Shown here piece by piece: positions 32,583 to 35,570 of a stretch of DNA of 43,746 bases. The DNA comes from a virus (taxonomy: Duplodnaviria > Heunggongvirae > Uroviricota > Caudoviricetes), in the IMG/VR virus record IMGVR_UViG_2636416110_000005. One strand, written 5' to 3'. Position 1 is the stretch's first letter; every line of letters starts with the position of its first letter. The notes under the pieces were generated by a model that was given only the letters and a program-made list of their open reading frames with translations, was not told where the DNA came from and ran no database searches. Made by a program: the position numbers and the translations under genes.

Positions 32583-33022
32583 GTTTTGCCCTGAAACTGG
32601 CGCGCGAGATGGGGCGACCCGACTGGCGTGCCATGCTTGCCGGGATGTCATCCACGGAGTATGCCGACTGGCACCGCTTTTACAGTACCCATTATTTTCA
32701 TGATGTTCTGCTGGATATGCACTTTTCCGGGCTGACGTACACCGTGCTCAGCCTGTTTTTCAGCGATCCGGATATGCATCCGCTGGATTTCAGTCTGCTG
32801 AACCGGCGCGAGGCTGACGAAGAGCCTGAAGATGATGTGCTGATGCAGAAAGCGGCAGGACTTGCCGGAGGCGTTCGTTTTGGCCCGGACGGGAATGAAG
32901 TTATCCCCGCTTCCCCGGATGTGGCGGACATGACGGAGGATGACGTAATGCTGATGACAGTATCAGAAGGGATCGCAGGAGGAGTCCGGTATGGCTTAAC
33001 CGGTAGGCGATCTGGTCGTTGA
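32564..33022 (+). CDS. T: T reading frame, expressed as G-T frameshift fusion; here extended 8 codons beyond the lambda T stop position
   Basis: Open -1 frame from the slippery site to TGA 33020..33022; at the position of the lambda T stop (32996..32998) this sequence reads TTA. Confidence 0.85.
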   Translation: MFDGELSFALKLAREMGRPDWRAMLAGMSSTEYADWHRFYSTHYFHDVLLDMHFSGLTYTVLSLFFSDPDMHPLDFSLLNRREADEEPEDDVLMQKAAGLAGGVRFGPDGNEVIPASPDVADMTEDDVMLMTVSEGIAGGVRYGLTGRRSGR

Positions 33023-33056
33023 TTTAAGTCTGGATGCGGCCAGATTTGACGAGCAG

Positions 33057-35570
33057 ATGGCCAGAGTCAGGCGTCATTTTTCCGGTACGGAAACTGATGC
33101 GAAAAAAACAGCGGCAGTCGTTGAACAGTCGCTGAGCCGACAGGCGCTGGCTGCACAGAAAGCGGGGATTTCCGTCGGGCAGTATAAAGCCGCCATGCGT
33201 ATGCTGCCTGCACAGTTCACCGACGTGGCCACGCAGCTTGCAGGCGGGCAAAGTCCGTGGCTGATCCTGCTGCAACAGGGTGGTCAGGTTAAGGACTCCT
33301 TCGGCGGGATGATCCCCATGTTCAGGGGGCTTGCCGGTGCGATCACCCTGCCGATGGTGGGGGCCACCTCGCTGGCGGTGGCGACCGGTGCGCTGGCGTA
33401 TGCCTGGTATCAGGGCAACTCAACCCTGTCCGATTTCAACAAAACGCTGGTCCTTTCCGGCAATCAGGCGGGACTGACGGCAGATCGTATTCTGGTCCTG
33501 TCCAGAGCCGGGCAGGCGGCAGGGCTGACGTTTAACCAGACCAGCGAGTCACTGACGGCGCTGGTGAATGCCGGTGTGCGTGGTGGTGAGCAGTTTGAGG
33601 CGATCAGCCAGAGTGTGGCGCGTTTCTCCTCTGCATCCGGCGTGGAGGTGGACAAGGTCGCTGAAGCCTTCGGGAAGCTGACCACAGACCCGACGTCGGG
33701 ACTGACAGCGATGGCACGTCAGTTCCATAACGTGACGGCGGAGCAGATTGCGTATGTTGCTCAGTTGCAGCGTTCCGGAGATGAAGCCGGGGCATTGCAG
33801 GCGGCGAACGAGGCCGCAACGAAAGGGTTTGATGACCAGACCCGCCGCCTGAAAGAGAACATGGGCACGCTGGAGACCTGGGCAGACAGGACAGCACGGG
33901 CATTCAAATCCATGTGGGATTCGGTGCTGGATATTGGTCGCCCGGACACTGCCCAGGGAATGCTGGAGAAAGCAGAAAAGGCTTTTGATGAGGCGGACAA
34001 AAAATGGCAGTGGTATCAGAGCCGAAGCCACCGGCGCGGTAAAACCTCAGCATTTCTTGCCAATCTCCGGGGAGCATGGGAGGACAGAGCGAATGCGCAA
34101 CTTGGGCTTTCAGCCGCCACGTTGCAGGCTGATCTTGAAAAGGCCAGAGAGATGGCAGCAAAGGACTGGGCCGAGTCTGAGGCATCACGGCTGAAATATA
34201 CCGAAGAGGCGCAGAAGGCTTACGAACGCCTGCAGACGCCGCTGGAGAAATATACCGCCCGTCAGGAAGAACTGAACAAGGCACTGAAAGACGGGAAAAT
34301 CCTGCAGGCAGATTACAACACGCTGATGGCGGCGGCGAAAAAGGATTATGAAGCGACGCTGAAAAAGCCGAAACAGTCCGGCGTGAAAGTGTCTGCGGGC
34401 GATCGTCAGGAAGACAGTGCTCATGCTGCCCTGCTGACGCTTCAGGCTGAACTCCGGACGCTGGAGAAGCATGCCGGAGCAAATGAGAAAATCAGCCAGC
34501 AGCGCCGGGATTTGTGGAAGGCGGAGAGTCAGTTCGCGGTACTGGAGGAGGCGGCGCAACGTCGCCAGCTGTCCGCACAGGAGAAATCCCTGCTGGCGCA
34601 TAAAGATGAGACGCTGGAGTACAAACGCCAGCTGGCTGCACTTGGCGACAAGGTTACGTATCAGGAGCGCCTGAACGCGCTGGCGCAGCAGGCGGATAAG
34701 TTCGCACAGCAACAACGGGCAAAACGGGCAGCCATTGAGGCGAAAAACCGGGGGCTTACTGACCGGCAGGCAGCGCGGGAAGCCACAGAACAGCGCCTGA
34801 AGGAACAGTATGGCGATAATTCGCTGGCGCTGAATAACGTCATGTCAGAGCAGAAAAAGACCTGGGCGGCTGAAGACCAGCTTCGCGGGAGCTGGATGGC
34901 AGGCCTCAGGTCCGGCTGGAGTGAGTGGGAAGAGAGCGCCACGGACAGTATGTCGCAGGTTAAAAGTGCAGCCACGCAGACCTTTGATGGTATTGCGCAG
35001 AATATGGCGGCGATGCTGACCGGCAGTGAGCAGAACTGGCGCAGCTTCACCCGTTCCGTGCTGTCCATGATGACAGAAATTCTGCTTAAGCAGGCAATGG
35101 TGGGGATTGTCGGGAGTATCGGTAGCGCCATTGGCGGGGCTGTTGGTGGCGGCGCATCCGCATCAGGCGGTACAGCCATTCAGGCAGCTGCGGCGAAATT
35201 CCATTTTGCAACCGGAGGATTTACGGGAACCGGCGGCAAATATGAGCCAGCGGGGATTGTTCACCGTGGTGAATTTGTCTTCACGAAGGAGGCAACCAGC
35301 CGAATTGGTGTCGGCAACCTGTACCGCCTGATGCGGGGCTATGCGGAAGGTGGTTATGTGGGCGGTGCCGGAAGTCCGGCGCAGATGCGGCGGGCTGAAG
35401 GCATTAATTTTAATCAGAACAATCACGTGGTGATTCAGAACGACGGTACGAATGGTCTGCCAGGTCCACAGATGATGAAGGCAGTGTATGACATGGCCCG
35501 CAAGGGTGCCCGTGATGAAATTCAGGCACAGATGCGCGATGGTGGTCTGTTCTCCGGAGGTGGACGATGA
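33057..35570 (+). CDS. H: tail tape measure protein H (first in-frame ATG after a premature stop at codon 3 of the canonical start)
   Basis: 837-aa ORF; canonical start ATG 32991 is followed by GCT TAA, then the frame is open and encodes PVGDLVVDLSLDAARFDEQ before Met 33057. C-terminal GG-rich region as in lambda gpH. Confidence 0.8.
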   Translation: MARVRRHFSGTETDAKKTAAVVEQSLSRQALAAQKAGISVGQYKAAMRMLPAQFTDVATQLAGGQSPWLILLQQGGQVKDSFGGMIPMFRGLAGAITLPMVGATSLAVATGALAYAWYQGNSTLSDFNKTLVLSGNQAGLTADRILVLSRAGQAAGLTFNQTSESLTALVNAGVRGGEQFEAISQSVARFSSASGVEVDKVAEAFGKLTTDPTSGLTAMARQFHNVTAEQIAYVAQLQRSGDEAGALQAANEAATKGFDDQTRRLKENMGTLETWADRTARAFKSMWDSVLDIGRPDTAQGMLEKAEKAFDEADKKWQWYQSRSHRRGKTSAFLANLRGAWEDRANAQLGLSAATLQADLEKAREMAAKDWAESEASRLKYTEEAQKAYERLQTPLEKYTARQEELNKALKDGKILQADYNTLMAAAKKDYEATLKKPKQSGVKVSAGDRQEDSAHAALLTLQAELRTLEKHAGANEKISQQRRDLWKAESQFAVLEEAAQRRQLSAQEKSLLAHKDETLEYKRQLAALGDKVTYQERLNALAQQADKFAQQQRAKRAAIEAKNRGLTDRQAAREATEQRLKEQYGDNSLALNNVMSEQKKTWAAEDQLRGSWMAGLRSGWSEWEESATDSMSQVKSAATQTFDGIAQNMAAMLTGSEQNWRSFTRSVLSMMTEILLKQAMVGIVGSIGSAIGGAVGGGASASGGTAIQAAAAKFHFATGGFTGTGGKYEPAGIVHRGEFVFTKEATSRIGVGNLYRLMRGYAEGGYVGGAGSPAQMRRAEGINFNQNNHVVIQNDGTNGLPGPQMMKAVYDMARKGARDEIQAQMRDGGLFSGGGR

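Follow-up and report, generated by a model that had tools for sequence, protein, structure and literature searches.

A strain-private stop codon near the start of tape-measure gene H in a Qin/lambda-like prophage of Escherichia coli JA65, predicted to abolish tail assembly

Nonsense mutants of phage lambda in the tape-measure gene H (sus or amber alleles) produce DNA-filled heads and no functional tails. The defective prophages Qin, Rac and DLP12 of E. coli K-12 are natural examples of prophages losing a virion-making function, and in K-12 Qin the structural module is gone through large deletions. Bacterial ribosomes can, in turn, reinitiate after very short open reading frames, the restarts of lacI and T4 rIIB being the classical precedents.

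Here we describe another lambda-type tail module whose tape-measure gene carries a nonsense codon. It lies in a viral genome of 43,746 nucleotides (IMG/VR record IMGVR_UViG_2636416110_000005), which we analysed whole and call the window; all features given below are on the plus strand. The window shares with lambda the same H gene, its Pfam domains and the gene order Z-U-V-G-T-H-M-L-K-I-J. Its left arm is of the Qin type, with the DicF RNA, a DicC-like Cro, ydfA-D, relBE, flxA, ydfU, csp genes of the cspB/F/I type, ynfN and gnsB, gene names that are taken from the annotation of PhiR42_1 (PV340562.1). The first 24 kb (1-24000) are 99.9% identical to PhiR42_1, and the gene order is equal throughout the window. 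In the tail region, a mosaic variant, individual proteins are about 90-99% identical to those of PhiR42_1, and a further difference is an IS21 element after J. From its GenBank record, as a named phage with ECOR13 as host, we infer that PhiR42_1 is plaque-forming; a search for literature on the PhiR phages returned no paper.

The allele differs from its nearest counterparts in several respects. The lambda H amber mutants were selected in the laboratory, whereas this one is natural and ochre, in the Qin-like prophage that a clinical isolate carries; its stop falls at codon 3, in the overlap of T and H, and the T stop is lost as well. In PhiR42_1, as in the intact H alleles P0006 and P0009, codon 3 is GAA and T ends at its normal stop. 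Compared with K-12 Qin, the window keeps all structural genes and has one damaged base, which would make it the earliest stage of decay and not a remnant.

The lesion is probably a real G-to-T transversion in the four-base T/H overlap of this Qin/lambda-like prophage. The native H start reads ATG (32991-32993), GCT (32994-32996), TAA (32997-32999), where the alignment gives ATG GCT GAA for lambda (J02459) and PhiR42_1; the base at 32997 is T here and G in lambda, PhiR42_1 and all other relatives examined. The first-pass annotation had given the lambda sequence as ATG GCT GAA with the overlapping T stop TGA, and it was correct on this point. It had also proposed that one base change both creates an ochre codon in H and removes the T stop: the alignment, the sequence and the list of open reading frames bear this out, since the same single base turns H codon 3 from GAA to TAA and the T stop from TGA to TTA.

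Upstream of the lesion, gene G (32160..32582) encodes an intact tail assembly chaperone of 140 residues, recognised by Pfam as Phage_TAC_2 (E 2e-58, residues 1-125), full length and free of stops against the G of PhiR42_1. Close to its end, the slippery heptamer G GGA AAG (32558..32564) can be read directly in the G register, the frame from 32160 giving the codons GCG GGA AAG, and the T frame is open downstream. We take this heptamer to be the lambda G/GT -1 frameshift site that yields gpGT. The T frame, encoding the C-terminal part of gpGT, spans 32564..33022 and counts 152 codons from its GTG, for an ancestral length of 144. Its residues 1-144 are 100% identical to T of PhiR42_1, and the Pfam domain Phage_tail_T is confined to residues 29-104. 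The T stop of lambda and its relatives overlaps H codons 2-3 (ATGGCTGA); this overlap is missing from the window, where the frame ends in TAT GGC TTA ACC GGT AGG CGA TCT GGT CGT TGA. At the ancestral stop site (32996-32998) there is now TTA, and the frame closes at the TGA of 33020-33022, so T is longer by eight codons, as had been noticed from the sequence at first reading. The rare gpGT product would thus carry eight extra C-terminal residues, LTGRRSGR.

In H itself, the Shine-Dalgarno sequence AGGAGGAG (32977..32984) is intact and precedes the ATG by 6 nt. Its duplex with the 3' end of the 16S rRNA reaches -10.3 kcal/mol and ranks near the top for the structural genes. What follows this site is no longer an uninterrupted H frame from the canonical start but a two-codon mini-ORF closed by TAA. 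Ribosomes would still be expected to load there, then terminate after Met-Ala. Beyond the stop, nothing interrupts the frame between 33000 and the H stop at 35568-35570. A tblastn of PhiR42_1 H against the window meets one stop inside the alignment, and an 856-residue H query accepted in the Pfam search supports an open frame that includes codons 4-22. These codons (PVGDLVVDLSLDAARFDEQ, 33000..33056) remain open in frame, stranded past the stop.

The first in-frame methionine codon is the ATG at 33057. It had been numbered Met22, which is wrong: (33057-32991)/3 gives 22 codons before it, so it is Met23 and 22 residues are lost, not 21. The parallel claim that H could be obtained only from this internal methionine, or not at all, holds, apart from the codon number. 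The open frame from Met23 (33057..35570) encodes 837 residues and is present in the ORF list and in RefSeq (WP_077764032.1). Pfam finds in it both TMP_2 (E 2.8e-70) and Tape_meas_lam_C (E 2.8e-21); with these two domains, a length of about 850 residues and a place between T and M, the gene belongs to the H family. Against the nearest intact alleles, P0006 and P0009 (859 residues each), the remnant aligns with residues 23-859 at 99.76% identity. As these differ from it at just 2 of 837 residues, the lesion appears to be recent.

The lost peptide contains the conserved N-terminal motif VGDL..F.E, within codons 4-22, of which VGDL and F.E are invariant in all eight aligned H sequences. In six relatives (33-58% identical overall to the window sequence), residues 1-21 show 56% identity to the window, compared with 28% for residues 22-53. 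The position of Met23 is occupied in these six by I, L, V or Y, and it is therefore no conserved alternative start; none of the full-length homologues among the 150 best representatives begins at the equivalent position. Both gpH and the mature gpH* have the same N-terminus, so that this end of the protein is kept in the virion (PMC12617516). In TP901-1, the N-terminal 154 residues of the tape measure are needed for infectivity (PMC5099701).

Altogether, we consider it probable that this real, strain-private G-to-T change leaves the prophage with no full-length gpH and few or no functional tails, at an early point of decay. With codon 3 a stop, the full-length tape-measure protein would not be made, and Met23 would be the sole codon from which to restart in frame.

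The most serious alternative is that the lesion leaks. Reinitiation at Met23, 58 nt downstream, would then supply a short gpH which, together with the extended gpGT, builds some infectious particles, and the prophage would therefore be weakened and not dead. Several features speak for it. The ATG at 33057 opens an uninterrupted frame of 837 codons, and the strong upstream Shine-Dalgarno sequence still brings ribosomes to the region. TMP_2 begins near residue 54 and both Pfam domains lie downstream of Met23, so the restart product would keep every catalogued domain. A tail needs few copies of gpH, and restarts after early nonsense codons are established for lacI and rIIB. The arrangement also recalls these restarts and the two-codon bar minigenes of lambda: a strong Shine-Dalgarno sequence, an AUG, one sense codon, UAA, and a further, in-frame AUG 58 nt on. 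This likeness is formal and drawn from textbook cases; in JA65 the restart codon has no Shine-Dalgarno sequence and is predicted to be structured.

The context of Met23 argues against such a rescue. Its Shine-Dalgarno energy is -2.2 kcal/mol, typical of the window, in which 67% of ATGs are equal or better. Its AUG is buried in a predicted RNA hairpin of -30.7 kcal/mol (33006..33062) that pairs the A and the U, with unpaired probabilities of 0.00 and 0.01, respectively, in the pair table; the folding of 32965-33105 has a z of -3.04. The codon thus has neither a ribosome-binding context nor an accessible start. Between 33000 and 33056, the sequence contains no in-frame ATG, GTG or TTG, which rules out another H start between the stop and Met23. 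Those that do occur nearby, ATG 33034, TTG 33019 and TTG 33046, are all out of frame with H; the first of them, located after the stop and before Met23, is a further point against a restart there. The N-terminal motif that the family conserves best is among the 22 missing residues, and the absence of full-length homologues starting at this position among the 150 best representatives points the same way. Because Met23 has no Shine-Dalgarno match and sits in a stable hairpin, and because its product would be without the conserved motif, rescue looks unlikely, and so does a leaky lesion as a whole. That the prophage is still viable, with a gpH minus 22 residues and a gpGT plus eight building infectious tails, seems to us quite improbable; if it were true, lambda-type tape measures could evidently do without the conserved N-terminal VGDL..F.E peptide, and gpGT without its exact C-terminus.

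We give still less credit to a sequencing or assembly error, in which the true base is G and H is intact. A single-base difference confined to one strain lineage invites the suspicion. The PacBio HGAP assembly made from the source strain nonetheless has the same T: contig JMJD01000003.1 matches the window exactly across the site, so that, at the level of assemblies, position 32997 reads T and not G, as first annotated. The window and this contig are different assemblies, since a 117-bp indel separates them at 41616/41617, and they agree on the base. The exact products of 837 and 152 residues are encoded on three contigs, JMJD01000003.1 among them. Databases list the 152-residue T under WP_032164855.1, EYB45342.1 and KEP10663.1, the latter two being GenBank identifiers, and it is also present in a Logan assembly; EYB45342.1 presumably comes from the Illumina assembly JFFN. 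Strain JA65 was sequenced on two platforms, PacBio and Illumina, at 68x and 95x, the latter being the Illumina coverage (PMC4271156). The site is outside any homopolymer run. On these grounds, the T at 32997 is probably no sequencing artefact.

For a single-base change, the relevant measure is rarity and not chance. In 5,426 complete E. coli genomes, 4,189 places are homologous to the 75-mer carrying T, and none of them matches it at 100%; with G restored, it matches 2,147 records at 100%. The T allele is likewise absent from 81 phage records, from IMG/VR and from a metagenome collection, and all 19 matching contigs of the species-representative genome set carry G. A polymorphism common to relatives, which would have shown as TAA/TTA at this site in other genomes, phages or representative contigs, is thereby ruled out. 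The premature stop is thus missing from every related copy examined and seen in one strain lineage only, that of E. coli JA65, a blood isolate from urosepsis. The best reading of these comparisons is a strain-private nonsense mutation of the ordinary knock-out type, involving no new mechanism.

Bypass of the stop, by an ochre suppressor tRNA or by UAA read-through giving enough full-length gpH in a normal relation to T, is hardly credible: the window contains no tRNA gene, which rules out a phage-encoded suppressor, suppression would leave the T stop missing, among the stop codons of E. coli UAA gives the most efficient termination, and ochre suppressors are rare in natural isolates.

We return to the reading of a prophage without full-length gpH. 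Among the genes annotated in PhiR42_1 that have a counterpart in the window, all are full length and free of stops except H and one hypothetical ORF of 47 residues. The structural module is thus otherwise intact, as the first-pass annotation had supposed, and with H the only named gene containing a stop, general prophage decay is ruled out. After induction, the prophage would be expected to replicate, to package its DNA in heads and to lyse the cell, with few or no functional tails; tail assembly is very probably abolished. The loss of infectivity that we infer would be neutral, the lesion being a first step of ordinary prophage decay, because selection does not act on the late genes of a repressed prophage.

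If so, JA65 carries a Qin/lambda-like prophage predicted to be unable to release infectious particles, which looks complete to prediction tools and whose 837-residue remnant of H is labelled by RefSeq as an ordinary tape-measure protein. It would be an example of one base in a gene overlap damaging two tail genes together, and of prophage decay seen at its outset. The natural allele could be used to ask if gpH requires its conserved N-terminal peptide; engineered lambda mutants would answer this question as easily, and the finding has little weight beyond strain JA65. A scan of the whole window at the Rfam gathering thresholds returned no RNA element near 33 kb, ruling one out at the site of the lesion, and identified the DicF RNA in the left arm.

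The tape-measure gene H of this prophage opens with ATG GCT TAA (32991-32999), six bases behind a Shine-Dalgarno (SD) sequence, AGGAGGAG, at 32977-32984, as read directly in the sequence. Past the ochre codon its frame has no stop until 35570: codons 4-22 encode PVGDLVVDLSLDAARFDEQ, the following in-frame ATG stands at 33057, and the ORF finder returns a remaining H ORF of 837 aa (33057-35570, + strand). The overlapping gene T, read one base to the left, continues as TAT GGC TTA ACC GGT AGG CGA TCT GGT CGT TGA; on the same strand the ORF finder gives it 152 aa from a GTG, with the stop at 33020-33022, against 144 aa in the ancestral form. 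Direct alignment places a G at 32997 in both lambda (J02459) and the close relative PhiR42_1 (PV340562.1), where H reads ATG GCT GAA and T stops at TGA. Over 32960-33065 only two single bases differ from these phages, T at 32997 and A at 33026 (G in both). The first-pass annotation had attributed the early H stop, the change of the T stop to TTA and the longer T to this one base, by comparison with the lambda arrangement. The G in lambda and PhiR42_1 confirms it, bar a correction: the internal Met is indeed at 33057, but it is codon 23 and not 22, since 22 codons precede it and, in alignment with intact alleles of 859 aa, the 837-aa product spans residues 23-859.

The T at 32997 is exceedingly rare. 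Of 5,426 complete E. coli genomes, 3,494 have homologues of the surrounding 75-mer (32960-33034), at 4,189 places in all, and not one of these is 100% identical to the T-bearing form. Restoring the G gives a 75-mer with 100% matches in 2,147 records; the T is therefore all that separates this sequence from the commonest allele. The T is likewise missing from the 81 phage records that match, and IMG/VR and the metagenome collection both lack the exact T-bearing 35-mer. A 29-mer with position 32997 left as N matched 19 contigs among the species-representative genomes, all with G. Relatives sharing TAA or TTA here, which would have made the codon ordinary, thus appeared in none of the E. coli, phage and representative-genome searches.

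The window holds a lambdoid prophage in prophage order, with the integrase at its left end. Its first 24 kb are 99.9% identical to PhiR42_1, and from about 22 kb onward comes a lambda-type head and tail module, a mosaic variant with the order Nu1-A-W-B-C-D-E-FI-FII-Z-U-V-G-T-H-M-L-K-I-J, followed by an IS21-family element whose istB stop is the end of the window. All 70 CDS annotated in PhiR42_1 were translated and searched against the window. Those with a counterpart are all present at full length without a stop, apart from H, with one stop, and a 47-aa hypothetical ORF; the expectation of an otherwise intact structural module is borne out, H being the sole named gene with a stop. Two CDS are without a counterpart since they fall outside the window: lom and a small ORF to the left of int. 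In the protein collection the nearest intact alleles of H, P0006 and P0009 (859 aa), match the window H at all but 2 of 837 residues; with the other shared genes full length, H thus shows no further decay. By these comparisons the mutation seems to be a recent one in a prophage that otherwise appears competent. PhiR42_1 is taken to be a working phage on the basis of its GenBank record, which names it as a phage with host ECOR13; a literature search gave no paper on it.

We consider it likely that a real, strain-private ochre mutation blocks a functional tape-measure protein, leaving a prophage that, to judge from its sequence, would form no infectious tailed particles. Such a prophage would probably still excise, replicate, package and lyse, and would fail to make infectious tailed particles for want of a functional tape measure. 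It would be a case of ordinary neutral decay, seen at the first hit in a late gene that is repressed, and a new mechanism is unnecessary to explain it.

A leaky lesion, with functional H restarted from Met23, is rather improbable. No ATG, GTG or TTG lies in frame within 33000-33056, as read in the sequence, which makes Met23 the sole possible in-frame restart; an out-of-frame ATG also stands at 33034, between the stop and Met23. The native H SD is intact and, with -10.3 kcal/mol for pairing to the 16S 3' end, ranks with the strongest in the structural genes; ribosomes should therefore still initiate at 32991 and terminate two codons on. The 20 nt upstream of Met23 pair with the anti-SD at -2.2 kcal/mol, a value equalled or bettered by 67% of the ATGs in the window. 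A hairpin of -30.7 kcal/mol is predicted at 33006-33062 (+), within the 5' coding region of H, and the 141 nt surrounding it have z = -3.0 versus shuffles. The A and U of the Met23 AUG are paired in it (unpaired probability ~0), unlike the native H start, which is exposed. Translating ribosomes should melt this hairpin in the wild type, whereas in the mutant it should remain folded.

The restart product would also lose a patterned N-terminus. Among 1.84 billion representative proteins, 8,069 relatives turned up. In six full-length ones (33-58% overall identity) the alignment begins at their residue 5-7, and a common pattern, M-x-Q-x-VGDL(V/I)VNL...(K)F.E, runs through their N-termini; their mean identity to the window H is 56% over residues 1-21, falls to 28% over residues 22-53 and reaches 84% over the start of the TMP_2 domain. 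The motif is retained even in P0047, a relative with a 70-residue insertion. At the position equivalent to Met23 the six have I, L, V or Y, hence there is no conserved second start, and among the best 150 of the 8,069 representatives no full-length protein begins at that position. gpH and the processed gpH* have the same N-terminus (PMC12617516), so that this end stays in the virion, and infectivity of TP901-1 requires the N-terminal 154 residues of its tape measure (PMC5099701). On the other side, both H Pfam domains lie downstream of Met23, so that a restart product would keep them.

Sequencing error has still less in its favour. The exact 837-aa H product (WP_077764032.1) and 152-aa T (WP_032164855.1; GenBank EYB45342.1 and KEP10663.1) are on record, and both were located on three contigs. 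One of these, JMJD01000003.1 (GCA_000714975.1), is identical to window 23057-43746, the T included, except for a 117-bp indel within the IS21 element; the window therefore comes from another assembly, of the same strain or one nearly identical to it. E. coli JA65, isolated from the blood of a patient with urosepsis, is the strain behind JMJD, a PacBio assembly at 68x, and was also sequenced independently by Illumina (95x, JFFN) (PMC4271156). We infer that the second GenBank identifier of T derives from JFFN. With the allele in two different assemblies, JA65 sequenced on two platforms and site 32997 outside any homopolymer, an error there is unlikely, with very little probability left to it. 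Suppression or read-through of the ochre codon is hardly credible, tRNA genes being absent from the window.

The same base alters T. G is intact and its slippery heptamer G GGA AAG (32558-32564), the established frameshift site in lambda, is in register with the G frame; gpGT can thus still be made by -1 frameshifting. As T is reached only by this rare event, the affected protein is gpGT, which gains a C-terminal LTGRRSGR. The extension falls outside the recognised T domain, since Pfam T covers residues 29-104 of 152. Xu, Hendrix and Duda (2014) reportedly found that the T part binds the major tail protein gpV.

The allele is in nature what the classical H nonsense mutants of lambda are in the laboratory, and it represents an early stage of the process that produced the defective Qin of K-12. 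It differs from these only in detail: the stop is ochre and at codon 3, the mutation falls inside the T/H overlap, whereby one base damages two genes, and the resulting two-codon mini-ORF behind a strong SD formally resembles the lambda bar minigenes.

Accessory genes typical of Qin lie in the left arm (DicC-like Cro, ydfA-D, relBE, flxA, ydfU, csp genes, ynfN and gnsB, from the PhiR42_1 annotation). Rfam adds DicF RNA (4774-4825, -), sok antitoxin RNA (10277-10448, +) and two cspA thermoregulator leaders (17294-17686 and 20196-20581, both +); with relBE and a hok-like gene, these RNAs mark a Qin-type accessory region in an otherwise complete prophage. The counterpart of the 47-aa ORF, at 22360-22500 (+) upstream of Nu1 near cos, is 91% identical with one stop, and is probably not a real gene.

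The 117 bp missing from the window relative to the JA65 PacBio assembly fall in the 5' part of istA, at 41616/41617, where the upstream istA frame (ATG CCA ACA ...) meets a TAA; as called, istA spans 41669-42985 and istB 42997-43746. The two assemblies being otherwise identical over 20.7 kb, the gap is either a real deletion in one IS copy or a short-read assembly artefact.

In the deposited genomes of three phages, PhiR49_1, PhiR49_1_star and PhiR70_1, the annotation divides H into two CDS. In PhiR49_1 (PV340568.1, 3492-6052), the one whose sequence was examined, a 1-bp gap within a G-rich stretch (in the window CAGGGTGGTCAGG, near 33281) shifts the frame near codon 97, which points either to a sequencing error in a homopolymer or to a plaque-forming phage whose H is split.

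The exact lambda H start region also occurs in contigs labelled Neobacillus, Oceanobacillus, Pseudomonas, Shewanella, Legionella, Kitasatospora, Bradyrhizobium, Enterococcus and others. Coverage is about 1x for many of them, and several measure ~48.4-48.5 kb; these matches (database loci L006-L023 except L014) are almost certainly lambda control-DNA contamination of assemblies. The record of 'Campylobacter phage CJLB-4' (MW057783.1), which matches the region equally to lambda (98.4%), looks like the same problem.
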